From a phage: a stretch of 64,000 nt of DNA. The notes under the pieces were generated by a model. The model made no database searches. It was given only the letters and a program-made list of their open reading frames with translations, and was not told the DNA's origin. Shown here piece by piece: positions 5,507 through 61,707 of the stretch. The position numbers and the translations under genes were made by a program. The stretch lies in NCBI GenBank assembly GCA_022979955.1, contig GCA_022979955.1_3642.1. One strand, 5' to 3'. Numbering within the stretch: the first letter of the stretch is position 1; each line of letters begins with the position of its first letter.

Positions 5507-5693
5507 TTTTGAGAAGATTGTAAAGCGATCTCATGATTCCGAAGAGTTGCCGGAACGCCGCCAGCGCAACAATAAATTGAATAAGCCAAAAAGATTTGGG
5601 AAGATCTGGCGGAATCATTATGATCGTAAATTGCCGGGCCTACTTTTGGAACGTGAACGACAGGCGGAACGATACCGCCACAAAGGCAAATAA
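5496..5693 (+). CDS. hypothetical basic protein
   Basis: ORF 5472..5693 trimmed to ATG with AAGGGGGG SD; K/R-rich. Confidence 0.4.
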   Translation: MKINFEKIVKRSHDSEELPERRQRNNKLNKPKRFGKIWRNHYDRKLPGLLLERERQAERYRHKGK

Positions 5694-5699
5694 CAACCA

Positions 5700-5728
5700 A
5701 CGCCCCGCCATTGTGCGGGGCTTTTTAT
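5700..5728 (+). terminator. rho-independent terminator
   Basis: CGCCCCGCC-loop-GCGGGGC hairpin followed by TTTTTATTT. Confidence 0.55.
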
Positions 5729-5851
5729 TTCTATCATACGAATAGCGCCCCTGGTTGGCCCTGTAAGCGCCAAAAAGGCCCCCACCTATGCAATCGCCCC
5801 CTTTAACCTGAAAACATCGCCCAGGGCCGTTTTATGGCGTTAAAAATATCA

Positions 5852-5879
5852 TTGACATCGTCAACAGGTTAGCTATACT
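5852..5879 (+). promoter_or_regulatory. sigma70-like promoter TTGACA-N16-TATACT
   Basis: hexamers read directly; upstream A/T tract. Confidence 0.5.
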
Positions 5880-5911
5880 AACCACATCAAAGAGAGGAAG
5901 GAGTAAACGCC

Positions 5912-6172
5912 ATGCGTAAATTAAAAAATTTTGATAAAGTTGATGTTATCCTGAATAATTTTTACTACTGCAACAACAAGGCTATTTGGTGGCGTGATAG
6001 TTCCACCGATAAAGTCAAGGCGCGCTTTCTCCAAGGGCACTGGCAAGGCCGCCCAGTGATTAAAATCATGGGGCAATTGGTAGCGTTTAAAAATTGCCGC
6101 CGTGTTGATGACGTTGAGGAGATTTTAAACATTTTGCGCCACAATAATTTAAAAAATAGTGTTGACAAGTAA
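5912..6172 (+). CDS. hypothetical protein
   Basis: ORF track; GAGGAAGGAG SD. Confidence 0.5.
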   Translation: MRKLKNFDKVDVILNNFYYCNNKAIWWRDSSTDKVKARFLQGHWQGRPVIKIMGQLVAFKNCRRVDDVEEILNILRHNNLKNSVDK

Positions 6173-19594: not shown

Positions 19595-19990
19595 TTACTG
19601 AAACAGTGCGGATAAATTACCTTCTGGTGGGAACTTATCTGCCAAAAACGGTGTTAGCACAGTAGCCTTCTGAAGATCTGGGGTCCACTCGTTGTTCAGA
19701 ACATCCCAGTAGTACGCAATGTTACTGTGTGGGTGCCGCATTACGAACTTTTTCCCCTCGTAGTCATCTGAAACCTCTACAGAAGAAATAACAACAGAAT
19801 CTTCAAGGGTTTCTTCATAGAAAGATCCGCCTTCAAATTTCCAACGAGATGCAAGAGCCCCTGCCTTGAACGCTGCAGATAACGGACTGTCGGCAAGAAC
19901 ATACATTTCTTGCACTCTGTCGCTGCGATCTTTGCTTCTTACGTTGTATACAGTATCTGAGCTATACTCAACACGGTATAGGCTTACCAT
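19595..19990 (-). CDS. hypothetical protein, paralog of 21800..22198
   Basis: shared segment FV.RHP.S...YW......WTP with 21800..22198. Confidence 0.5.
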   Translation of the reverse strand: MVSLYRVEYSSDTVYNVRSKDRSDRVQEMYVLADSPLSAAFKAGALASRWKFEGGSFYEETLEDSVVISSVEVSDDYEGKKFVMRHPHSNIAYYWDVLNNEWTPDLQKATVLTPFLADKFPPEGNLSALFQ

Positions 19991-20322
19991 TACCGCACCT
20001 CCTCAATAACTTCCACATCTGAACCCACCACAAATGCAAAAGGACAGGTTTCATGAAAGACATCCGGATCGCCGCCAAGCTTGCTAACAATTTCTCCACC
20101 ACTAATAAACACAAGCTCACCGATATTCATCAGATTGCTGAAATAGTATCCATAATGATTAAAGAATGCAGCAGGGTCAGGTAGACTAGTAGCCTCAAGT
20201 TCTACATCGGTTGAGATTACTTTCTTATCATAACCTCTCGCCTTCTGAGATGCAAGATCTGCAGAATCTTCAGGCGACCGGAGATGCACAGGAATTGTTT
20301 CACCAATAAATCGTACTTTCAT
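19990..20322 (-). CDS. hypothetical small acidic protein, paralog-family A member
   Basis: ORF 19990..20349 begins at TTG; trimmed to ATG at 20322; motif LVFISGGEIVSKLGG and C-terminal VEVIEE. Confidence 0.45.
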   Translation of the reverse strand: MKVRFIGETIPVHLRSPEDSADLASQKARGYDKKVISTDVELEATSLPDPAAFFNHYGYYFSNLMNIGELVFISGGEIVSKLGGDPDVFHETCPFAFVVGSDVEVIEEVR

Positions 20323-20326
20323 ATTC

Positions 20327-20590
20327 TTACCCAACAACCATAGCTTCAAAAGGAGTCATGAACGAATAAACGGCATCATCATCTGCTTCAGGAAATGCTC
20401 CCAAAGACTTCATATCTGAGCCCTTGACAAATACAAGGTTTTGATCAAAAGCTTCTTGAGGGTCAATCCGATACATATCTCGTAGGATATCGCTTACCTC
20501 CTCATCAAGAGGTGAGTATGCTGTGCACGTTTTTCCGATCAAGCTTTGAGAATCAGGGTATCCACCTGAAGTTTTAAAATAAACAATCAT
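20327..20590 (-). CDS. hypothetical small acidic protein, paralog-family A member
   Basis: motif LIGKT...LVFVKGSDMKSLGA. Confidence 0.5.
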   Translation of the reverse strand: MIVYFKTSGGYPDSQSLIGKTCTAYSPLDEEVSDILRDMYRIDPQEAFDQNLVFVKGSDMKSLGAFPEADDDAVYSFMTPFEAMVVG

Positions 20591-20684
20591 ATAGTATCAC
20601 CTCTGGCAAGAGATGGGGATTCCTTTCCCACAAATAATTACAAACTTTTCTTTTTATTGAGGGAGTATGCTAATCAAAGCAGGA

Positions 20685-50215: not shown

Positions 50216-50540
50216 TGCAGTCCTCCTTATCTAATAGATCTTTTATTGGGTAAACAAGCAGGTGTGGATCGTAATAATTTATAGTTTTATTCTGCCACAC
50301 TATGAACTTAATTACAACTAAATTTACCACATCTTTATCTCCATGTAGTCCAACACACAGATTTGTCCATATTTTGTGGTTGAATACTTTGCTGTCGATG
50401 TAGATCTTAGTGTCAAACTTATCCTCTATCCTGCCTATAAGTTTAACCAACTCTTTCATCTGATCCCCAAACACAGCATCGTTTTCAAGATCTCTAGAGT
50501 GCTTGTACATAACTATCTGCCTCACTTGCATACTTTCCAC
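50202..50540 (-). CDS. hypothetical protein
   Basis: ORF track. Confidence 0.4.
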   Translation of the reverse strand: MESMQVRQIVMYKHSRDLENDAVFGDQMKELVKLIGRIEDKFDTKIYIDSKVFNHKIWTNLCVGLHGDKDVVNLVVIKFIVWQNKTINYYDPHLLVYPIKDLLDKEDCNAVI

Positions 50541-50573
50541 AACAAGTAAAGCCGGGTAATCCCGGCCATGTTG

Positions 50574-51287
50574 TTAAATATACTCTGCTACATCCTTGAA
50601 GCTCGAAGGCTTCATGATCTTACCTTTACTGTCAAGGAATATGATAACTTTATTACCGTTGTAGAATTCTTCCTTAGCAACAAAACCTTCATATCGACCA
50701 TCAAAGCGTCGCTCAAGATCTTTAATCTCCAACTCTATGAGTTGTTCAGCAGGCATATCTGCACTGGCACCGTGTGAATACCGTAGATGGTTGACCCGTG
50801 CAAACTTGCTGTCATTCGATTTGAGAACCTTACGCATCATCCCGCACACATCGCCGCGAAGCTGGAACAGCAAAGCTGTTGACAACTCCGCTAAACGGTA
50901 AGCTGACGCTCTTTGCTTGGATGTGTTTTTCGCAGCGATCAGTGTGTCATAGAACTCACCGATCTTGAACTTAAGACCTCGTGGATTATCAAACAGGTTT
51001 GACCACTTTTCGTGATTGTCATTAACAAGATAAGCTGCATAACTTGTGACAACGTGAAGATCGCAGGCCTCCTTTAGCAGGTGATCTCCACCATCACCTT
51101 TCTCCAGCTCTTCCAAAACTTCATTGAACTCTTCCTCAATGAAGCTAAGCTGTAATTCGAATGGTGTGTATGATTTTTTCACTTTAGCTGCCACACGGTT
51201 CCAGTTTTCCACCCAGTTGGCAGACCAAAGGTAGTTTTCAGGTTGGGATAGTTTTTCCAGGTTGTCAATTAATTTAGTATTCAGCAT
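50574..51287 (-). CDS. MazG-like all-alpha NTP pyrophosphohydrolase domain protein
   Basis: SFIEEEFNEVLEELEKGD...KEACDL resembles EExxE/ExxD metal-binding helices of MazG/HisE. Confidence 0.4.
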   Translation of the reverse strand: MLNTKLIDNLEKLSQPENYLWSANWVENWNRVAAKVKKSYTPFELQLSFIEEEFNEVLEELEKGDGGDHLLKEACDLHVVTSYAAYLVNDNHEKWSNLFDNPRGLKFKIGEFYDTLIAAKNTSKQRASAYRLAELSTALLFQLRGDVCGMMRKVLKSNDSKFARVNHLRYSHGASADMPAEQLIELEIKDLERRFDGRYEGFVAKEEFYNGNKVIIFLDSKGKIMKPSSFKDVAEYI

Positions 51288-51300
51288 TAAAGGTCTCCTT

Positions 51301-52062
51301 TTAAAGTTCCATAAAGTTTTCTACAGTCTCAATGAATGTTTTATCAGAGAAGGCATCAACCGCACCGTTAAACCAAACTGGGATGCCACGATCCTCATAC
51401 TGGTAAATATCACTACGTGAAATGCCATTCTCCTCTAGATGCTGTGAGTCGTATTTATTAACGATCAGTAGTTTGGTTCCCTTATTGCAGGCAGGGAATA
51501 GCTCCCAGTTAAAATTGATAACTGTGTTGGAGCACCCTACAAGGATAACCATATCATTGCTCGTAAGAGAAGTCAACAGGTCATACATGTCTGTATACTT
51601 CGGAGCTACTTCTCCGAAGAACACCACATTAGGCTTAACCCAGGTATACTTTCCTGCGTCTACCTCAGAGTATCCAATGTCCTTAATGACGTCACTTCCT
51701 TCATCGTCCTCATAGACTATTTCTGGCAAATACCCGTGGACATGTAAAATATCTTCATGTTTTACACCAGCACGCTCCAGCAAATCATCTACATTGGTGG
51801 TAAGGTTGATCACACGACCAGACCAGCGGGAATACCACTCAGCGATCCGAAGATGTGCAAGGTTAGGCTCAACACTGCCTAAAGCTACACGACGTGCATT
51901 GTAAAAGTCATGCACCTTATAGTAGTTCTTGGCAAAGGTGTGGATGTTGCACACCTCATCGATGCTGAAATTCTCCCACATTGCAGTGCTACCAGATCGG
52001 AAAGTGGGAATACCAGATTCAGCGCTCAAACCAGCACCGGAGATAATAATCAGTCGTCGCAT
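51301..52062 (-). CDS. Sir2-family (sirtuin-like) NAD-dependent protein, apparently lacking Zn-ribbon
   Basis: GAGLSAESGIPTFR, TTNVDDLLERAG, VHGYL, VVFFGE motifs; no CxxC pairs between them. Confidence 0.7.
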   Translation of the reverse strand: MRRLIIISGAGLSAESGIPTFRSGSTAMWENFSIDEVCNIHTFAKNYYKVHDFYNARRVALGSVEPNLAHLRIAEWYSRWSGRVINLTTNVDDLLERAGVKHEDILHVHGYLPEIVYEDDEGSDVIKDIGYSEVDAGKYTWVKPNVVFFGEVAPKYTDMYDLLTSLTSNDMVILVGCSNTVINFNWELFPACNKGTKLLIVNKYDSQHLEENGISRSDIYQYEDRGIPVWFNGAVDAFSDKTFIETVENFMEL

Positions 52063-52070
52063 AAGTGTCC

Positions 52071-52421
52071 TCAGTAGATGTTTTGTTTAATCTCTATTCC
52101 AAACTTTTTAAACGAGTCAGCTGCAAGCATGAATTTACGAGCCGCTGATGGGTTAGAAGTATGCACGAAAATCTTCACGTTGTCAACTACAGGAGGCTTA
52201 CCAAATACAAATTTTTCCTCCAACATAGATAGGCAATCGTACCCTTCGAATACCTCTCCAAGGTCGTTGTCCATATGCCACTCAGAAACGCGTCTGTAGA
52301 GCTTTCTATTATCGTTAATAAAATCTATAAACTCGGAGGAATTCTTTAGCCAAACAGCGTCTTGGAGCCCGTACTTTGACGGATCTCTCAAGTCATCCAG
52401 CCACACAATCAACTTCTTCAT
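52071..52421 (-). CDS. hypothetical protein (possible CheY-like receiver fold)
   Basis: ORF 52071..52451 trimmed to MKKLIV start at 52421 abutting RNA ligase stop; DD...D...T pattern IVWLDD / HMDNDLGE / VHTSNP. Confidence 0.4.
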   Translation of the reverse strand: MKKLIVWLDDLRDPSKYGLQDAVWLKNSSEFIDFINDNRKLYRRVSEWHMDNDLGEVFEGYDCLSMLEEKFVFGKPPVVDNVKIFVHTSNPSAARKFMLAADSFKKFGIEIKQNIY

Positions 52422-53353
52422 TGCATATAGTCCTCGTTGTGAAAATAGCAATCAAGTATCTCACGGCGTTCCTGCTCCAGGAGGCAGTTCCACACATCTT
52501 CTGTGTAATTGCTACGAATGAAGTTTACCATGCCGTAAAACTCTTCGTCAATACGTTTAAAGATATCATCATCCCAAATCTTCCAAGCTTTACCCCTCAT
52601 TACGGCCTTCCGTGCCAAATAGTATGGAGACTTGATCTTCAGCTGCAGGTCATAAGGGTAGTAAGGCTTACGGATCATATACCCTTCGCCCCTTGTTTCT
52701 GCAGCTAATTCTTTTGCATAGCTGAACGGGATTTCACGCACAGTGTGAGGACGTTTTGCACCAAGGTATTTGGCAATCCCATCTAAAGCTGCTTCTGGTA
52801 GCATTATTCCAGAATCATTATATCTGCAACCTATCAAATATGCGCCATGGTCTTCTTGAACAATATGCGGATCTGAAGGGTGACAAATTTCAAACATGAA
52901 TGTCATGTTTTCATTGCCCATAACCTTCTTGATAAGATCTAAATTACCACATTGCTCTTGGATGGTTTCCTTTGCAAGGTTACAATATGGAGAATCAAGA
53001 GACCCGGTTGTTGAGAACAATAGGTCACCTTTATGAGATGATACCACACCAAGGAATCCGTTCTTTTTCTCTACCGCAGTCACAAGCTTATTGTCAGGCA
53101 GGTTGGTGGAGTTTTCTCCCAAGTTAAACACTTTTGTGAAGGGCCATGCCACAACATTTCCTTCATTACCTACAACAATGCCTCGGCACTCCAGTAAACG
53201 AGGGGACAAATGCCATAAATTGTTGTAAAATACTTTTCTAGCATATTTATAGATCTTTAACCCGAGATCTGGGTAATACCTACTGGTTACAAGACCTTTG
53301 TCAACTAGGTCGTCTGCATTAAAATACTTCATCATACGTTCCTCATTTGTCAT
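52418..53353 (-). CDS. Rnl1-family RNA ligase
   Basis: LLECRGIVVGNEG...TKVFNLGEN...TAVEKKNGFLGVV tracks T4 Rnl1 segment ALECRGIMF...KFFNLNEN...TKEDGSLVS (recalled), incl. motif I lysine. Confidence 0.65.
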   Translation of the reverse strand: MTNEERMMKYFNADDLVDKGLVTSRYYPDLGLKIYKYARKVFYNNLWHLSPRLLECRGIVVGNEGNVVAWPFTKVFNLGENSTNLPDNKLVTAVEKKNGFLGVVSSHKGDLLFSTTGSLDSPYCNLAKETIQEQCGNLDLIKKVMGNENMTFMFEICHPSDPHIVQEDHGAYLIGCRYNDSGIMLPEAALDGIAKYLGAKRPHTVREIPFSYAKELAAETRGEGYMIRKPYYPYDLQLKIKSPYYLARKAVMRGKAWKIWDDDIFKRIDEEFYGMVNFIRSNYTEDVWNCLLEQERREILDCYFHNEDYMQ

Positions 53354-53396
53354 TTTGTCAGTCTATCCTGCCACACAAATAACCTGGTGTCAACAC

Positions 53397-53425
53397 TTGA
53401 AATTAACAAAACAGTTAGGTATACT
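53397..53425 (+). promoter_or_regulatory. sigma70-like promoter TTGAAA-N17-TATACT
   Basis: divergent intergenic region; hexamers read directly. Confidence 0.45.
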
Positions 53426-53453
53426 ATCGTTGAAATTAAAACGGAGGGTCACT

Positions 53454-53864
53454 ATGTCTAAAATGCTATATATCGTGCGTGGTCTGCCAGGGTCTGGCAA
53501 ATCAACACTGGCAAATGCGCTATCTTTAGAGGGTCTGTATCCACATTTTGAGAACGACATGTTCTGGTATGACGATGACGGCAATTACAACTGGGATGCA
53601 AGTAAAGTAACACTCGCAGCGAAATGGTGCAAAGATAACGTAGAAGATATGATGCGTATGGGATACGACCGTATCGTGGTAAGTAATACGTTTACAAAAG
53701 AAAAACATGTGCAGGAATATGTTGACATGGCAATCAGTCATGGGTATAGTTATACCGTGATCGTGGTTGAAAACCGCCACGGTAATAAAAGCATTCATGA
53801 TGTTCCAGACAAGGTTGTGGATCGTATGGAACGCCAGCTTAAAAACTGCATTAAACTTAAATGA
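53454..53864 (+). CDS. polynucleotide kinase-like P-loop kinase
   Basis: ORF 53298..53864 trimmed to ATG with GGAGGG SD; P-loop GLPGSGKST as in T4 Pnk kinase domain. Confidence 0.55.
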   Translation: MSKMLYIVRGLPGSGKSTLANALSLEGLYPHFENDMFWYDDDGNYNWDASKVTLAAKWCKDNVEDMMRMGYDRIVVSNTFTKEKHVQEYVDMAISHGYSYTVIVVENRHGNKSIHDVPDKVVDRMERQLKNCIKLK

Positions 53865-53871
53865 GGAATGT

Positions 53872-54426
53872 ATGAAATACTTTGTAACAAGCGACACACA
53901 CTTTCTCCACCAGCGGGTCATGGAGTTCGATTCATGTCAAAAACACAGATCTCAGTATGATCACAATCTTGACAGTATGAATGCGGGAATCATCACCAAG
54001 TGGAACTCTGTTGTGTCACCTGCAGACACTGTGTTTCACTTGGGAGATATTGCGTGCACTAATGATAAGAATATCAACAAATTGCTCCCAGATGTTCTAA
54101 ATATGTTGAACGGACATATTATTCTTGTTCGTGGTAACCATGACACAAGGACGACTGTCAGAATTATGAAAGAGTTCGGTCATGAGGTTGTAGATTATTA
54201 CGAGCTTCGCCACAACAAGAATTTGATCTGTATGAGCCATTACCAGTTTGCAAAGTGGAACAGAAAGCCTCACGGATCAGTCCAACTGTTCGGTCATGCT
54301 CACGGAACCACACAGCAGTTGTTTGGCAGGCAGTTTGATGTCGGTTGGGATGTGTGGGGGAGACTCTTACCATTAGAAGAGGCATACCGTATTGCAATGA
54401 GTCTTGCTATTGACAGCGGGGAGTAA
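53872..54426 (+). CDS. metallophosphoesterase (calcineurin-like phosphatase)
   Basis: ORF 53767..54426 trimmed to ATG with GAGGA SD; VTSDTHF, HLGDI, VRGNHD motifs. Confidence 0.6.
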   Translation: MKYFVTSDTHFLHQRVMEFDSCQKHRSQYDHNLDSMNAGIITKWNSVVSPADTVFHLGDIACTNDKNINKLLPDVLNMLNGHIILVRGNHDTRTTVRIMKEFGHEVVDYYELRHNKNLICMSHYQFAKWNRKPHGSVQLFGHAHGTTQQLFGRQFDVGWDVWGRLLPLEEAYRIAMSLAIDSGE

Positions 54427-54473: not shown

Positions 54474-54824
54474 ATGAAAGATGGGGATAAGCTGCTATAT
54501 CTTAAAGTCCCCCTTGAAATACTGTCTATGTCAAAAGTTTTGAATGACACAACTGGGGAGGTTGTTGTTCTTGACTTATATGACAAGATCGTATACTGCT
54601 ACCTGCACAACTGGTATAAGCTTGGAGGAAATTCACGCTTCACACCCAGCACAAGGAAAATTGCAGCAGATGTTGGGATAAAGAAAACAAAAGCAGCAGC
54701 GTGCGTTAAAACTTTAGAATGTGCAGGAGTGGTTGAAATATCCACACAAGGGAGAGGTAAAAGATGTACATTTTCCAAAGTTTTGCCACCAGAAGAGGTT
54801 ATTCGAATGTCAACAACTGGTTAG
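54474..54824 (+). CDS. winged-helix/HTH DNA-binding protein (candidate origin-binding or regulatory protein)
   Basis: TRKIAADVGIKKTKAAACVKTLECAGVV HTH-like segment; GAATCAGGAGA SD; iterons immediately downstream. Confidence 0.45.
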   Translation: MKDGDKLLYLKVPLEILSMSKVLNDTTGEVVVLDLYDKIVYCYLHNWYKLGGNSRFTPSTRKIAADVGIKKTKAAACVKTLECAGVVEISTQGRGKRCTFSKVLPPEEVIRMSTTG

Positions 54825-54895
54825 ACCAGTAAAAACTTAAATATCTGTACTATAAGGATTCGTATGTTTTATGTTCGCTCTGGAACAGAGGTCAG

Positions 54896-54981
54896 TAACT
54901 GTCCGTGATACGGACACTACTGTCCGTCACGCGGACACATCTGCCCGTAATACGGACACTAACTGTCCGTGATACGGACAC
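54896..54981. repeat. four tandem 21-22 bp iterons, each with core GTCCGT-N3/4-ACGGACAC
   Basis: 54896..54917, 54918..54938, 54939..54959, 54960..54981 read directly; copies 1 and 4 identical. Confidence 0.7.
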
Positions 54982-57361: not shown

Positions 57362-57436
57362 GCCCTGTTAGCTTAGTGGATAAAGCAGCGGCCTTCTAAG
57401 CCGTTGACACTGGTTCGAGTCCAGTACGGGGTGCCA
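57362..57436 (+). tRNA. tRNA-Arg (anticodon UCU)
   Basis: hand-folded cloverleaf: acceptor GCCCTGT/ACGGGGT, anticodon loop CTTCTAA, T-loop TTCGAGT, 3' CCA encoded. Confidence 0.7.
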
Positions 57437-57440
57437 AATT

Positions 57441-57527
57441 GGGGAGTTATCCCGTAGAGGTAGCGGTGTAGACTGTAAATCTATTGTCATTGCGACTCGG
57501 GTGGTTCGACTCCACCACTCCCCACCA
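57441..57527 (+). tRNA. tRNA-Tyr (anticodon GUA), type II long variable arm
   Basis: acceptor GGGGAGT/ACTCCCC, anticodon loop CTGTAAA, T-arm GGTGG-TTCGACT-CCACC, CCA encoded. Confidence 0.7.
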
Positions 57528-57641
57528 AATTTATATTTTTAGATGCGTAAATAATACAGATAATGGCATTGATATTTATCGTCGTTTATACTAGTCACTA
57601 ACTGCTCGAAAATCAGTGTCATTATCAGTATAATTTATAAA

Positions 57642-57732
57642 GGAGGGTAGGGAGCAATGGTGCTCAAGCGGTCTTGAAAACCGTCCCATTGAGGATGACT
57701 CGATGATGGTTCGATTCCATTACTCTCCGCCA
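57642..57732 (+). tRNA. tRNA-Ser (anticodon UGA), type II
   Basis: acceptor GGAGGGT/ACTCTCC, anticodon loop CTTGAAA, long variable arm, T-loop TTCGATT, CCA encoded. Confidence 0.65.
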
Positions 57733-57830
57733 CATTGTTGACCTTGTAATTAAGCGAAAGCCGGAAGCAGAACCGGATTATCAAATGTTACAGTCGTCAT
57801 CGCCGACTAGCAACATGGTCAACATACTGA

Positions 57831-57927
57831 GCTAGGTAAGCCCTTTGGCAAGGGCGAGGATTTTTAATCCTGAAAATAGACGAGGTAGTCGTTGAATACA
57901 TAGGTGGTTCGATTCCACCGCCTAGCA
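57831..57927 (+). tRNA. atypical tRNA-like gene (anticodon loop TTTTTAA, nominal Lys-UUU) with about 30-nt extra arm
   Basis: acceptor GCTAGGT/GCCTAGC, D-arm GCCC-TTTGGCAA-GGGC, T-arm GGTGG-TTCGATT-CCACC; 4-bp anticodon stem; no encoded CCA. Confidence 0.35.
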
Positions 57928-57933
57928 CCTTTT

Positions 57934-58009
57934 GCTGATGTAGCACAATTGGCAGTGCAATTGATTTGTAATCAATAGGTTGCAGGTTCAAGTCCTGCCA
58001 TCAGCACCA
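57934..58009 (+). tRNA. tRNA-Thr (anticodon UGU)
   Basis: acceptor GCTGATG/CATCAGC, anticodon stem ATTGA/TCAAT with loop TTTGTAA, T-arm GCAGG-TTCAAGT-CCTGC, CCA encoded. Confidence 0.75.
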
Positions 58010-58010
58010 T

Positions 58011-58085
58011 GGCCCTGTAGCTGGAAGGTTCAAGCAAGCGACTCATAATCGCCAGATGGTGGTTCAATTCCACCCAGGGCCACCA
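58011..58085 (+). tRNA. tRNA with CAU anticodon (Met, or Ile if lysidine-modified)
   Basis: acceptor GGCCCTG/CAGGGCC, anticodon loop CTCATAA, T-arm GGTGG-TTCAATT-CCACC, CCA encoded. Confidence 0.65.
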
Positions 58086-58096
58086 AATTATAAATA

Positions 58097-58163
58097 CTCC
58101 GCGTAGCTCAGCTTGGTAGAGCGCCTGATTTGGGATCAGGAGGTCGAGTGTTCGAATCACTCC
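58097..58163 (+). tRNA. tRNA-Pro (anticodon UGG)
   Basis: acceptor CTCCGCG/CGTGGAG, anticodon stem CCTGA/TCAGG with loop TTTGGGA, T-loop TTCGAAT, CCA encoded. Confidence 0.7.
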
Positions 58164-58219
58164 GTGGAGACCACCTTTAGTTATACTTTAAACATATACA
58201 AACGAAAGGAACCTTTAAA

Positions 58220-59277: not shown

Positions 59278-59705
59278 TGTCTAAGATTTACGGACCGTGT
59301 TCTGAAAAGCAGAAGATGATCCTAGAAAACGATGCAGATATTTTGGTAATCGGCGGTGCCGCAGGGTCTGGCAAGTCGTTCCTCTTGCAGTTGATGCCAC
59401 TTAAAATTATTGATGACCCCCACAGCTCTGTGGTTATGTTCCGAAGAACAACCCCACAGTTGGAAGGTGAGGGTGGACTATGGCCTAAAGCAGTAGCTAT
59501 TTATAGTGATCTGCCTGAAAACATTAAGCCAAAGTTCAGAGAGAAGGATCATAAGTTCATTTTTCCACGGTTTGATCCGAACACTGGCAAGTGGGATAGG
59601 AGCAAAAAGGGAGCTGTTGTAAAATACTGCCACATGGAGTATGTACAAGATAAGCTTAACCATCAAGGGCTTGAGTACACCATGGTTTGCTTCGATGAGG
59701 GTTAA
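59277..59705 (+). CDS. terL: terminase large subunit, N-terminal exon (ATPase Walker A/B)
   Basis: Walker A VIGGAAGSGKS, Walker B-like MVCFDEG immediately before stop; C-terminal part resumes at about 60619. Confidence 0.6.
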   Translation: MSKIYGPCSEKQKMILENDADILVIGGAAGSGKSFLLQLMPLKIIDDPHSSVVMFRRTTPQLEGEGGLWPKAVAIYSDLPENIKPKFREKDHKFIFPRFDPNTGKWDRSKKGAVVKYCHMEYVQDKLNHQGLEYTMVCFDEG

Positions 59706-60640
59706 TTTGTAGCTCTCGTAAAACCTCCCTAATTGCGGGGAAATCTTTATTATTGACACCACCAACCTGTTATGGTAACATAATAGAGGCTTCGAAGAGA
59801 GATCGAAGGTATGGTAATAGTGTGTTAATTTAGATAATCCGCAGCGAAGCATCCGAGAGGATGAACGTTCAACGACTAGTCGAAAGACGTAGAATCAAGC
59901 GATTCGAAACGGGAGGGTGAATGTGTAATACTAAAAAATGTATGGATTGTCAAAGAGTTCTACCTATTGATGATTTCTTTTTATCATCTAAGAGCAAGGA
60001 TGGATACTCAGGTACATGCAAGGAATGCTATATGTACTACAGGAAGGGTGGATCTCGTAAAAACAAAAATATGGTTAAGAGAGATGACGCAGCATTGTTT
60101 ATTCAAGACTTGCTGAAGAAAGGTGAACTTTTTGAATGCAAATCTTGTCATGAAAGTATGCTCGCTGATAGTTTTTACACAAAACGTGACTATGGTAAAG
60201 TATACCTGGTTACGAACAGGTGTAAGATGTGTGAAAAGTTTTATCAGATTGAGAAAAAATTTCACATAACAAAAGATGAATACTATCGTCTACTCTCAGA
60301 TCAAGATCATAAGTGTGCCATTTGTAGAATATCTCTTGATGAGTATAGGACGCAAGGGTACAGAGATTTCTTTTGTGTTGATCATGACCATAAAACTGGC
60401 GCTGTAAGAGGGTTGCTTTGTGATAAATGCAACAGAGCTTTAGGTTTCTTCCAAGAGGATGAGGAAACTATTCTTAGAGCGGCAGAGTATTTGCACATTC
60501 ATAAGATATAGTCTGGTCTGCATGGAGACATGCAGCTGCCTGAAAATGGCGGGGCAAGACTAGCGACCTTGCCCGAACATAAACGACACAATTCGAATGG
60601 GAGCAGATAGACTACCTGATGTCTCGTTTGCGATCTCAGT
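59706..60640 (+). mobile_element. putative group I intron in terL carrying an HNH homing endonuclease gene
   Basis: terL frame interrupted right after Walker B; structured-looking flanks; free-standing HNH ORF with own SD; boundaries approximate. Confidence 0.5.
59921..60511 (+). CDS. HNH homing endonuclease (endonuclease VII-type motif)
   Basis: CVDHDHKTGAVRGLLCDKCNRALG motif plus N-terminal Cys-rich region; GGGAGGGTGA SD. Confidence 0.7.
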   Translation: MCNTKKCMDCQRVLPIDDFFLSSKSKDGYSGTCKECYMYYRKGGSRKNKNMVKRDDAALFIQDLLKKGELFECKSCHESMLADSFYTKRDYGKVYLVTNRCKMCEKFYQIEKKFHITKDEYYRLLSDQDHKCAICRISLDEYRTQGYRDFFCVDHDHKTGAVRGLLCDKCNRALGFFQEDEETILRAAEYLHIHKI

Positions 60641-61707
60641 CAAAGTATCCATCAAGGATGGTTATCAGCTGTAACCCTGATTCAGAACACATGCTTGCCA
60701 AACTGGTTAGATGGTGGTTGGACGATGAAGGGTATCCAGATCCGGAGAAATGTGGTAAGAAAAGATATTTTATCCGACGCGACGGTGAATTTATTTGGGG
60801 AGACTCTAAGGAAGAGTTGATAGAGAAATACACCACGGTTAACGGACTGGGTGTAGAGATCAAGCCAAGACCGTTGTCATTCTCGTTCATAGGCGCAACA
60901 ATATTTGATAATCCTGTCTGTTTGAGAGACAACCCAGAATACCTTGCTTTCCTCGAAGGTCTGCCAGAGCTGGAAAAAGCTCAGCTTCTCCATGGTAACT
61001 GGTTTGCAAAGCCTGAGGGTGCAAACTATTTTCAAAGATCTTTCCTTCGTGATGCCGATAGAGTACCCCTTGGATCAGTATCTTGCAGGGCATGGGATAA
61101 GGCAGGAACCGAGAGAACTTCTGGCAATAAATTTCCTGACTTTACTGCCAGTATTAAGGTAAGTAAAGATAGCGACGGCTTTTATTACCTGTCAGGGGAT
61201 TATTGTCCTGAAAACGTGGATGACGGGAGGTATTCCACAGGTCTGGAAGGCAAGTTCTGTAAAAAGGCTGGTGAACGAGATGTGATCATCAGGAAACAGG
61301 CGCAGTTTGATGGTGATGATTGCATAATCGTATTCTCTGTGGACCCTGGTCAGGCAGGTAAGAGTGAGTTCTTAACCTCATCCAGATCCTTGCTCGCCGA
61401 AGGGTTCAGGGTTGAAGAAGACCCAATGCCTTCCAACAAATCTAAACTGACAAGGTTCTCACCTTTTGCCAATCTTGCACAACAAGGGATGGTGAGGATT
61501 GTAAAATCCAGTTTCCATCCTGATACTCTGGAAGCATTTCTGACTGAACTTGAAAAATTCAACGGGGAAAGATCAACATTTAACAGAAAAGACGACTGGG
61601 CAGACTGTGTAGCTTCTGCGATTAATTTCCTGGAGAAAGAGGAGGTAGCACTTCCTTGTGTGATTCCATCAATCTCATCACCTTCTATGTTCAAGCGTTT
61701 TATCTAA
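60619..61707 (+). CDS. terL: terminase large subunit, C-terminal exon (nuclease domain); true exon start unresolved
   Basis: continues terminase after the intron (ISCNPD segment near start); size and position before portal. Confidence 0.55.
   Translation: MSRLRSQSKYPSRMVISCNPDSEHMLAKLVRWWLDDEGYPDPEKCGKKRYFIRRDGEFIWGDSKEELIEKYTTVNGLGVEIKPRPLSFSFIGATIFDNPVCLRDNPEYLAFLEGLPELEKAQLLHGNWFAKPEGANYFQRSFLRDADRVPLGSVSCRAWDKAGTERTSGNKFPDFTASIKVSKDSDGFYYLSGDYCPENVDDGRYSTGLEGKFCKKAGERDVIIRKQAQFDGDDCIIVFSVDPGQAGKSEFLTSSRSLLAEGFRVEEDPMPSNKSKLTRFSPFANLAQQGMVRIVKSSFHPDTLEAFLTELEKFNGERSTFNRKDDWADCVASAINFLEKEEVALPCVIPSISSPSMFKRFI

Follow-up and report, generated by a model that had tools for sequence, protein, structure and literature searches.

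A zinc-less sirtuin in a putative RNA-repair cassette of an rV5-like phage

Three tightly packed minus-strand genes, coding for a sirtuin (Sir2 family), a cREC domain protein and a MazG-like protein, are tentatively read here as the accessory, NAD-using half of a cassette for the repair of RNA (probably tRNA) in an rV5-type phage, a reading that we place a little short of an even chance. They occupy positions 50574-52421 of the window, the whole 64,000-nucleotide stretch of phage DNA analyzed here. Published rV5-like phages are 99.5% identical to the window, which belongs to Vequintavirus. The neighborhood, its composition and its mechanism are already known as a prediction published in 2022 for the same phage group, and their value as a discovery is limited. 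Iyer, Burroughs, Anantharaman and Aravind (2022, Viruses 14:1977, section 3.7.3) described a sirtuin-centered phage RNA-repair neighborhood, termed configuration 2, with Escherichia phage V5 and Proteus phage Mydo as its prototypes; the view of the first-pass annotation that no phage system of such composition had been described is thus mistaken. The composition in the window is identical with configuration 2 (sirtuin, T4-like ligase, cREC, nucleotide kinase, MazG pyrophosphatase and calcineurin-like phosphoesterase), and nothing material differs. What is added here is the clade-wide loss of the zinc cysteines, the class III affinity of the sirtuin, which keeps its YxxR motif, the limits of the operon, the likeness of the MazG-like structure to dimeric dUTPases, the unlinking of the sirtuin in Phapecoctavirus, and the finding of no sirtuin near the Pakpunavirus trio of repair genes. 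No experimental work on phage sirtuins, cREC, or the rV5 or T5 Sir2 was found in the literature searched.

Operon layout and RNA-repair genes

The features of the region are as follows.

50550..50567, minus strand: stem-loop, likely 3′ end of the ligase-cREC-Sir2-MazG unit (terminator scan and RNA fold)
50574..51287, minus strand: MazG-superfamily (all-alpha NTP pyrophosphohydrolase) protein, 237 aa, structure closest to dimeric dUTPases
51301..52062, minus strand: sirtuin (Sir2 family), class III (CobB/SIRT5)-like, 253 aa (PF02146)
52071..52421, minus strand: cREC domain protein, 116 aa (PF20274)
52418..53353, minus strand: T4 Rnl1-type ATP-dependent RNA ligase, 311 aa (PF09511)
53454..53864, plus strand: small P-loop kinase, polynucleotide-kinase-like, 136 aa (AAA_33)
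53872..54426, plus strand: calcineurin-like metallophosphoesterase, 184 aa (Metallophos_2, Metallophos)
57362..58173, plus strand: phage tRNA gene cluster (ARAGORN, Rfam)

The six cassette genes fall into six identified families, all within 50574-54426, and are surrounded by a block of replication and nucleotide-metabolism genes. Since they are conserved across hundreds of phage genomes, the cassette is not a chance pattern. On the minus strand the RNA ligase gene comes first, followed by cREC, Sir2 and the MazG-like gene; the ligase stop codon overlaps the cREC start codon by 4 nt, and the next two gaps are 8 and 13 nt. Directly 3′ of the MazG-like stop codon lies a G+C-rich stem-loop, GGCCGGG-AUUA-CCCGGCU, followed by UUUACUUGUUG. 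The RNA fold of 50530-50585 on the minus strand has a free energy of -19.3 kcal/mol (z = -3.7), and none of 200 shuffled sequences folded as well. The stem-loop is likely the end of the ligase-cREC-Sir2-MazG transcript, probably as a terminator with a weak U-tract. The kinase and phosphoesterase genes are transcribed divergently from the ligase operon, with a promoter-like site (TTGAAA-17-TATACT, 53397-53425) ahead of the kinase and GGAGGG before its ATG.

The ligase, the kinase and the phosphoesterase bear out the earlier placement of the three genes in an operon beside RNA-repair genes. The ligase (305 aa when the annotated start of its relatives is used) matches PF09511 at 1.1e-14 (55.3 bits, cut-off 28.3) and TIGR02308 at 6e-10, where its 38.7 bits lie below the equivalog cut-off of 242. 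Its clade profile matches T4 Rnl1 (2c5u) at 1.9e-9, and even with this profile no similarity to Trl1 structures was found at E <= 10. The motifs K96-x-N98-G99, F154-E155, E223-G224 and K239-x-K241 are invariant. The alignment of the phage ligase to T4 Rnl1 stops near residue 291 of 374. T4 Rnl1 seals 2′-OH/3′-OH ends, and Trl1 requires a 2′-phosphate. The ligase clade also has an invariant His eight residues past the motif III Glu and a Lys/Arg past motif V, which resemble the His-Arg-Arg triad of Trl1. These positions do not track the presence of the sirtuin: PAK_P2 and Gary, two phages outside the sirtuin-bearing lineages seen here, have ligases in which they are just as invariant. We treat them as a lead, not as evidence.

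The kinase matches AAA_33 at 1e-10, PHROG 2071, and also PHROG 505, "polynucleotide kinase", at 4.8e-10, and it adjoins the ligase in PAK_P2, Gary and ESCO37. The phosphoesterase matches Metallophos_2 (1.7e-6), Metallophos (4.1e-6) and PHROG 547 (5e-51), and is found together with the ligase and the kinase in every lineage examined. It is a candidate end-healing enzyme for RNA 3′/2′-phosphates and cyclic phosphates. The tRNA cluster (Arg-TCT, Tyr-GTA, Ser-TGA, one odd tRNA-like gene, Thr-TGT, Met-CAT and Pro-TGG), 3 kb from the cassette, possibly belongs to it functionally, as substrates or as context.

A zinc-less sirtuin and its operon partners

The product of 51301-52062 matches PF02146 at 3e-27 (96.2 bits, cut-off 24) and no other Sir2-type family in Pfam, so that the Sir2 assignment made in the first-pass annotation holds. 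The motifs quoted for it are present: GAGLSAESGIPTFR at residues 9-22, TTNVDDLL at 88-95, VHGYL at 108-112 and VVFFGE at 146-151. In an alignment of 31 clade members, which are 50-61% identical, the residues G9-A10-G11, S16, F21-R22, Y54, R57, N90, D92 and H109-G110 are invariant. The protein consists of one domain of 253 aa and has no sensor or partner domain. Its AF2 model (pLDDT 88.9) has CobB as the best Foldseek match (6rxq/1s5p, E ~1e-19); the matches to CobB and SIRT5 range from E 1e-19 to 1e-15 with TM ~0.75-0.83, and phmmer against the PDB finds SIRT5 and CobB at ~2e-21. The nearest relatives in sequence and structure are of the class III deacylase type (E. coli CobB, SIRT5, Af Sir2), and also Sir2Tm.

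With E. coli CobB and human SIRT5 the phage sirtuin shares the GAGxS, N-x-D, HG, FGE and Tyr-x-x-Arg motifs, but it differs from them in several respects. It has no Cys between H109 and K143, and the two CxxC pairs of the zinc module are absent from all 31 clade members, some of which carry a single Cys before KPNV; the suspected absence of the zinc-ribbon cysteines is therefore a property of the whole clade. In the AF2 model the place of the CxxC pairs is taken by a short beta-hairpin, predicted with confidence. The QN(I/V)D motif begins with Thr rather than Gln. The scores fall far under the NCBIfam equivalog cut-offs for housekeeping CobB (103.5 vs. 320 bits for NF040867 and 122.7 vs. 243 bits for NF001753), and on this ground a housekeeping CobB was rejected. 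In the sequences searched here, the clade is confined almost wholly to phage-sized contigs and phage records.

The earlier comparison with the NAD-depleting Sir2 effectors of anti-phage defense does not stand. The defense Sir2 NADases (ThsA, DSR1/2, SIR2-HerA and pAgo-associated Sir2) share the superfamily and the NAD-binding Rossmann fold with the phage sirtuin, which is, unlike them, single-domain and phage-encoded. None of the PADLOC defense Sir2 models was matched, the sole hit being a marginal one (E 0.0076) to the candidate family PDC-S65; this result and the Foldseek affinity to CobB and SIRT5 rule out a defense-type NADase. The protein is a superfamily member in an atypical, zinc-less clade. 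Since the NAD-binding and catalytic residues are kept, and the protein is neither a CobB ortholog nor a defense NADase, its sequence suggests that it has kept the chemistry and taken on a new substrate. The isoelectric point was dropped as a proxy for RNA binding, since the ligase is acidic as is the sirtuin clade (pI 4.6-5.8).

The small protein upstream of the sirtuin had been compared to receiver domains for its DD...D...T pattern, and it is indeed receiver-like. It does not match Response_reg (PF00072), and cREC_REC (PF20274) is its sole Pfam match at E <= 0.01 (4.5e-15, 56.5 bits, cut-off 27); it also matches PHROG 1479 at 4.7e-35. The pattern corresponds to D9/D10, D51/D53, T88/S89 and K96. 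In 27 homologs R12, P14, D51, D53, H87, S89-N90-P91 and K96 are invariant, and D9, D10 and T88 are shared by at least 90%. A PDB sequence search found no solved relative, the best match being Spo0A at E 0.47. cREC adjoins the RNA ligase here and lies no more than 4 kb from it in nine related loci and in ESCO37, and no histidine kinase was found among the cREC neighbors scanned. Similarly, Iyer et al. (2022) reported cREC only in contexts of RNA repair or ADP-ribose cyclic phosphate, and never with a histidine kinase. It is predicted to be a metal-independent cyclic phosphodiesterase.

For the MazG-like protein the fold and the relatives support the earlier assignment, and the window sequence itself has no Pfam or NCBIfam match at E <= 0.01. 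It has a helical-bundle fold with the metal-binding acidic residues EExxE...ExxD, and 40 of 60 relatives match PRA-PH (PF01503) and 12 match MazG (PF03819). Within the all-alpha NTP pyrophosphohydrolase superfamily (dimeric dUTPase, MazG, HisE/PRA-PH), the window protein lies under the threshold of every Pfam model and adds a conserved C-terminal beta-hairpin, in which K223 and K226 are invariant. In structure it is closest to dimeric dUTPases; none of the 60 family members scanned reaches Pfam dUTPase_2 at E <= 0.01, and a PDB sequence search gave nothing useful. In Mydo-like and Phapecoctavirus genomes its gene adjoins an ATP-dependent DNA ligase gene, not the sirtuin, and the protein could be an ordinary dNTP house-cleaner.

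The cassette in other phages and compared with known repair systems

In 12-14 rV5/Mydo-like loci from IMG/VR, the phosphoesterase, kinase, Sir2, DNA ligase and MazG-like genes lie within 12 kb in differing gene order; the RNA ligase is found in 11 of these loci and cREC in 8. T5-like phages have an orthologous sirtuin (58% identical). Its next sizeable gene neighbor codes, in 28 of the 31 loci, for a phosphatase of the HAD_SAK_2 family ("Swiss Army Knife RNA repair", 4e-20), and no ligase was found within 6 kb of the sirtuin. In Phapecoctavirus ESCO37, 25 kb separate the sirtuin from a cREC-MPE-ligase-kinase-DNA ligase-MazG cluster. Judged from the shared cassette, the rV5, Mydo and Phapecoctavirus groups seem to be related, and because of this their co-occurrence may not be independent evidence. 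The sirtuin-bearing rV5-like, Mydo-like and T5-like groups comprise 982 GenBank phage records.

The ligase family extends further, with 175 Pseudomonas and 56 Streptomyces phage records among its matches; neither genus is among the ten most frequent sirtuin host genera listed. In PAK_P2 and Vibrio phage Gary, which are sirtuin-less, the ligase-kinase-phosphoesterase trio stands beside Prs, Nampt and a Macro domain, and an rV5-like genome also codes for a Macro protein. No sirtuin was found within 7 kb of the PAK_P2 ligase or near the Pakpunavirus ligase trio. The neighbors Prs, Nampt and Macro link the trio to NAD/ADP-ribose metabolism. Pfam scans found no RNA-repair domains near the sirtuin in Phapecoctavirus-like loci (L032, L055 and others) and several jumbo-phage loci (L061-L076), where its neighbors are DUF7275/7277, GyrB-like, nucleoside deoxyribosyltransferase-like, UvdE, AdoMet decarboxylase and one metallophosphoesterase. 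The published jumbo-phage configuration was not reproduced from the loci sampled here. It is worth adding that the linkage of the sirtuin is not universal and that the MazG-like protein, next to DNA ligase in relatives, is most like dimeric dUTPases, both of which count against the RNA-repair reading.

An Rnl1-family ligase, a 5′ kinase and a phosphoesterase are common to the phage cassette and to T4 Pnkp-Rnl1 and bacterial Pnkp/Hen1-type repair, the cassette phosphoesterase resembling the phosphatase module of bacterial Pnkp in being calcineurin-type. The purpose may also be the same as that of the T4 system, which counters the PrrC anticodon nuclease, namely reversing tRNA cleavage by host nucleases. 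In the cassette, however, kinase and phosphoesterase come as two individual small proteins, the ligase falls ~60 aa short of T4 Rnl1 and has an uncertain C-terminal tRNA-specificity domain, and cREC, sirtuin and MazG-like genes have no counterpart in T4. The proposed logic is like that of fungal and plant tRNA splicing and repair (Trl1 cyclic phosphodiesterase, kinase and ligase, then Tpt1), but cREC is not a 2H phosphodiesterase, the sirtuin is not a Tpt1 homolog, and the ligase matches T4 Rnl1, not Trl1.

Proposed NAD-linked RNA repair and rival readings

From the domains, fold, catalytic residues, operon and neighborhood observed, the following putative substrates and reaction steps can be proposed. 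By homology, the P-loop kinase would phosphorylate 5′-OH ends, the metallophosphoesterase and/or cREC would process the 2′,3′-cyclic phosphate ends that metal-independent anticodon nucleases of the host leave behind, and the break would be sealed by the Rnl1-like ligase. The zinc-less sirtuin may then use NAD+ to strip a 2′-phosphate in the fashion of Tpt1/KptA. The sirtuin side of this chemical parallel is established knowledge. The RNA 2′-phosphate would attack C1′′ of NAD+ with departure of nicotinamide, and the His-activated ribose 2′′-OH would attack the phosphate, yielding RNA with a 2′-OH, alongside ADP-ribose cyclic phosphate; the mechanism of Tpt1 (PMC11404444, PMC11417386) matches sirtuin chemistry step for step. 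Iyer et al. (2022) first proposed that the sirtuin acts like Tpt1/KptA, an ART-superfamily enzyme, in removing RNA 2′-phosphates with NAD+. None of the ten cassette-region proteins scanned matches a Tpt1-type family in Pfam, and the claim is one of functional analogy, not of family membership. The MazG-like pyrophosphatase may degrade an ADP-ribose-derived or other nucleotide by-product, comparable to the Nudix domain for which a by-product role was predicted in the jumbo-phage version (Viruses 14:1977). A more specific form of this proposal, in which a CobB-derived, zinc-less sirtuin became an RNA 2′-phosphotransferase independently of Tpt1/KptA, cREC is a new receiver-fold cyclic phosphodiesterase and the ligase clade prefers or requires a 2′-phosphate end, seems to us doubtful. 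Against the 2′-phosphate step, the kinase and phosphoesterase could heal the ends completely, so that no 2′-phosphate junction need form. Against an RNA 2′-phosphate role, the sirtuin is acidic and retains two substrate motifs of protein deacylases, FGE and YxxR.

These two motifs raise the question of whether the genes are adjacent but act separately, the sirtuin as a lysine deacylase (CobB-like, perhaps a desuccinylase) resetting host or phage acylation, the MazG-like protein as a dUTP/dNTP house-cleaner for replication, and cREC alone in RNA repair. The Tyr-x-x-Arg of SIRT5 and CobB binds succinyl or malonyl carboxylates, and the invariant Y54-x-x-R57 of the phage sirtuin, whose closest relatives CobB, SIRT5, Af Sir2 and Sir2Tm are bona fide deacylases, aligns with it. 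The MazG-like gene beside DNA ligase, the unlinked Phapecoctavirus sirtuin, and the replication and nucleotide-metabolism surroundings also fit this arrangement. We nevertheless regard it as rather unlikely: the sirtuin lacks the zinc module, which helps to build the small domain of the peptide cleft in canonical sirtuins, reaches roughly half of the CobB-family cut-offs at most, belongs to a clade confined in our searches almost wholly to phage-sized contigs and phage records, and neighbors RNA end-processing enzymes in two independent lineages, while none of the 60 MazG-like relatives scanned reaches dUTPase_2. Another variant keeps RNA as the substrate and changes the reaction. The sirtuin might deacylate RNA or aminoacyl-tRNA (for instance ac4C, or the N-acetyl-aminoacyl-tRNA that GNAT toxins make), or might cap RNA phosphate ends by ADP-ribosylation, as Tpt1 can with 5′-phosphates. 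Its RNA-repair context, the nearby tRNA genes and the fully conserved deacylase-type catalytic machinery would allow this, and RNA ADP-ribosylation by Tpt1-type enzymes is documented (PMC9458441). This variant is pure inference, however, with no cassette neighbor specific to acyl-RNA and no precedent in the literature searched for acyl-tRNA as the substrate of a sirtuin from bacteria or phages, and we consider it highly improbable.

The first-pass annotation had proposed an NAD/nucleotide counter-defense module. NAD chemistry is probably involved, but the immune-signal part of that proposal is less supported than NAD-linked RNA repair. In it the sirtuin would act on NAD or ADP-ribose signals, cREC would open messengers of the cyclic-phosphate or cyclic ADP-ribose type, and the MazG-like protein would hydrolyze alarmones or cyclic-oligonucleotide precursors, together blunting Thoeris, CBASS and DSR-type defenses. 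Each of the three families works on NAD, ADP-ribose or nucleotides, the Prs, Nampt and Macro genes abutting the ligase cluster in sirtuin-less phages fit an NAD-centered counter-defense hub, and cREC has been listed among predicted processors of ADP-ribose derivatives (Viruses 14:1977). The same survey, however, places cREC only in the contexts given above, and the sirtuin is of neither the NADase nor the defense type; NAD consumption would aid NAD-depleting defenses rather than counter them. Furthermore, an RNA ligase heads the operon, the facing kinase and phosphoesterase have no role in signal degradation, and neither the scanned cassette genes nor the annotation of the homologous region showed a sponge, a Nudix or an NAD-reconstitution gene. 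We judge the immune-signal reading improbable. RNA end repair is favored over it because of the T4-like ligase, cREC, kinase and phosphoesterase here and the HAD_SAK_2 phosphatase in T5-like phages. RNA repair is itself a counter-defense against host anticodon nucleases.

If NAD-linked RNA repair is true, it would explain how large coliphages (rV5-like, Mydo-like and T5-like) survive tRNA-cutting host defenses. Phages of the rV5-like and T5-like groups are used in therapy and biocontrol and are present in the BASEL collection, so that deletion mutants are directly testable. The reach of sirtuin chemistry would widen from acyl-lysines in proteins to phosphates in RNA, and the phage sirtuin would be the first with a nucleic-acid phosphate as its physiological substrate. 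The sirtuin would be convergent with Tpt1, and the cREC fold would receive its first assigned activity. Many enterobacterial phages would then run a complete fungal-style pathway of healing, sealing and dephosphorylation built from unrelated parts.

Gene content of the cassette

The three minus-strand open reading frames that the first-pass annotation described as Sir2-like, MazG-like and receiver-like were confirmed, as were their RNA-repair neighbours, an RNA ligase gene overlapping cREC and a divergent kinase and phosphoesterase pair.

Features of the cassette and its surroundings
50574-51287, minus: MazG-like protein (PHROG 671 "nucleotide pyrophosphohydrolase", 5e-22)
51301-52062, minus: sirtuin (Pfam SIR2, 3e-27, 96 bits against a cut-off of 24)
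52071-52421, minus: cREC (PF20274 cREC_REC, "cyclic-phosphate processing receiver domain", 4.5e-15)
52418-53353, minus, upstream of cREC: RNA ligase, 311 aa (PF09511, 1.1e-14)
53454-53864, plus, divergent: P-loop kinase, 136 aa (AAA_33; PHROG "polynucleotide kinase")
53872-54426, plus, divergent: calcineurin-like phosphoesterase, 184 aa (Pfam and PHROG profile matches)
3 kb beyond the cassette: phage tRNA gene cluster (ARAGORN/Rfam)

The ligase and cREC genes overlap by 4 nt, the gaps between cREC and the sirtuin and between the sirtuin and the MazG-like gene are 8 and 13 nt, and a strong stem-loop (-19.3 kcal/mol, z = -3.7) lies just 3' of the MazG-like stop codon. A nucleotide database comparison of the 1.9-kb stretch of the three genes gave 99.5% identity with Shigella phage CM1 and 97-99% with many rV5-like phages of Escherichia (Vequintavirus; among them slur16 and the BASEL phages). 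The records of these phages already carry the labels "Sir2-like protein", "nucleotide pyrophosphohydrolase" and "RNA ligase" at the locus. About 20 unannotated GenBank 'Campylobacter phage' records (MG0656xx, host C. jejuni) share 97-100% identity with the E. coli rV5-like lineage and are probably mislabelled or contaminant assemblies. In slur16 the gene for the large terminase subunit is annotated in two parts, as distinct CDS about 420 bp apart (window equivalents by homology at about 59284-59712 and 60134-61150, plus strand), which may reflect an intervening element or a split gene.

The motifs quoted in the first pass are located at residues 9-22, 88-95, 108-112 and 146-151 of the sirtuin. 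Its best sequence matches, SIRT5 and E. coli CobB (E ~2e-21), are class III sirtuins, and so are the best Foldseek matches of its predicted structure (E ~1e-19, TM 0.75-0.83). Across a clade alignment of 31 members (50-61% identical), the NAD-binding and catalytic residues GAG, S16, F21-R22, N90, D92 and H109-G110 are invariant, and Tyr54-x-x-Arg57 of the sirtuin is aligned with the Tyr-x-x-Arg of SIRT5. The zinc-ribbon cysteines are indeed lacking: none of the 31 members has the two CxxC pairs, which are replaced in the predicted structure by a short, confidently modelled beta-hairpin. Orthology with CobB was rejected (122.7 bits against a cut-off of 243, and 103.5 against 320). The proposed analogy with NAD-depleting defence effectors was likewise rejected, since the sirtuin matches no PADLOC defence-system Sir2 model and only marginally the candidate family PDC-S65. 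The sirtuin of Klebsiella phage vB_Kpn_3 carries the label 'tail assembly protein'.

The DD...D...T pattern noted earlier is accounted for by conservation of D9/D10, D51/D53, T88/S89 and K96 in cREC, a domain defined in a 2021 jumbo-phage paper of the Iyer et al. group. The MazG-like protein itself has no direct match in Pfam, NCBIfam or PDB sequence searches. An exhaustive profile search recovered 166 relatives; among the 60 scanned, 40 match PRA-PH and 12 match MazG, and the family conserves all four acidic metal ligands. These findings, together with the match to PHROG 671, show that "MazG-like" is right at the superfamily level.

All nucleotidyltransferase motifs of the ligase are invariant, and its clade profile matches T4 Rnl1 (1.9e-9) but none of the Trl1 structures. 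H163, 8 residues past the motif III Glu, and K249 and R253, 8 and 12 residues past motif V, are also invariant in the clade. They recall the His-Arg-Arg triad of fungal Trl1, which enforces 2'-phosphate end specificity. This likeness is a lead only, because the ligases of Pseudomonas phage PAK_P2 and Vibrio phage Gary equally carry equivalents of H163/K249/R253.

Within the tRNA cluster, a tRNA-like gene at 57831-57929 (plus) is unusually long (97-99 nt). ARAGORN gives it a 4-base anticodon 'atcc' with no amino acid assigned, the Rfam tRNA model scores 31 bits (gathering score 29), and its slur16 counterpart is annotated 'tRNA-???'. An iteron-like array at 54890-54981, with four copies of a repeat with the palindromic core GTCCGTGATACGGAC spaced 21-22 nt apart, follows closely after a gene labelled 'replication initiation protein' (54474-54824). 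The array falls in a 660-bp gap with few ORFs, close to a GC-skew sign change, and is probably a replication origin.

Sirtuin and ligase neighbourhoods in other phages

Sirtuin relatives at 76 IMG/VR loci were annotated by iterated profiles and clustering. In rV5/Mydo-like contigs (12-14 loci) the phosphoesterase, kinase, sirtuin, an ATP-dependent DNA ligase and the MazG-like gene are kept, and the RNA ligase and cREC are present in most; gene order differs, with the sirtuin adjoining the kinase and DNA ligase and the MazG-like gene 2-3 kb off. At the 31 T5-like loci no ligase gene accompanies the sirtuin within 6 kb; at 28 of these loci, the first sizeable gene downstream of the sirtuin encodes a phosphatase of the HAD_SAK_2 "Swiss Army Knife RNA repair" family (4e-20). 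This arrangement matches the third configuration of Iyer et al. 2022 and is a second, independent link of the sirtuin to RNA repair. No RNA-repair domains were found among the sirtuin neighbours in Phapecoctavirus-like and several jumbo-phage loci. In the complete Phapecoctavirus genome of Escherichia phage ESCO37, cREC, phosphoesterase, ligase, kinase, DNA ligase and MazG-like genes form an intact cluster at 45.6-51.4 kb, and the sirtuin (19812-20627) lies 25 kb away. The ESCO37 cREC gene (5603-5947 of locus L079) is misannotated 'RNA ligase and tail attachment protein'.

The ligase family occurs in 665 phage records, including 175 from Pseudomonas and 56 from Streptomyces phages, two genera absent from the ten most frequent among the 982 sirtuin records, many of which are T5-like, without a nearby ligase. 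In the surroundings of the ligases of PAK_P2 (L078, 5472-11831) and Gary (L080, 6995-13097), the sirtuin, cREC and MazG-like genes all went undetected. There the homologous ligase-kinase-phosphoesterase trio lies beside Prs (ribose-phosphate pyrophosphokinase), Nampt (nicotinamide phosphoribosyltransferase) and a 'phosphatase'-annotated protein, which is a Macro domain by Pfam in PAK_P2 and known by annotation in Gary. In slur16, a 152-aa Macro-domain protein (L084, 16013-16471; 25.9 bits, cut-off 22), also annotated 'phosphatase', is encoded about 130 nt beyond position 1 of the window, hence outside it, and could process ADP-ribose-1''-phosphate. Proximity of the trio to Nampt, Prs and Macro genes repeatedly ties RNA repair to genes of NAD/ADP-ribose metabolism.

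Proposed mechanism and role of the cassette

The kinase, phosphoesterase and ligase make up a conserved core of the T4-like heal-and-seal type, with cREC, the sirtuin and the MazG-like enzyme as accessory components. The sirtuin-centred RNA-repair prediction of Iyer et al. (2022, Viruses 14:1977) is the most economical explanation of the cassette, although we judge it slightly less likely than not to be right. Cyclic-phosphate ends left by host anticodon nucleases would be healed and then sealed, the sirtuin would strip a 2'-phosphate in an NAD-dependent, Tpt1-like step, and cREC and the pyrophosphatase would handle the cyclic-phosphate and ADP-ribose by-products. The sirtuin mechanism mirrors both steps of Tpt1, so that such chemistry is plausible by analogy. 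In Tpt1, C1'' of NAD is attacked with loss of nicotinamide, and attack by the ribose 2''-OH then yields a 1'',2''-cyclic product (PMC11404444, PMC11417386). The repeated placement of the trio near Nampt, Prs and Macro genes in other phages also points to this NAD-linked account.

Several observations limit our confidence. The ligase resembles T4 Rnl1, which needs no 2'-phosphate, and the kinase and phosphoesterase could render a Tpt1-like step unnecessary. The sirtuin keeps deacylase-type substrate motifs, its linkage is lineage-restricted and the lineages sharing it look related, and the MazG-like protein resembles dUTPases, its gene tracking the DNA ligase. Full-text literature searches found no experimental follow-up of the predicted system.

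The first-pass annotation had proposed a module manipulating NAD or nucleotide signals, of a composition with no well-described phage precedent. This interpretation is supported in part. Its suspicion of NAD chemistry is probably right; its novelty does not stand, as rV5-like phages are the very group for which the system has been described. The cassette is more likely to serve in RNA repair than to manipulate NAD or nucleotide signals, and the system is already known as a published prediction, one that is directly testable.
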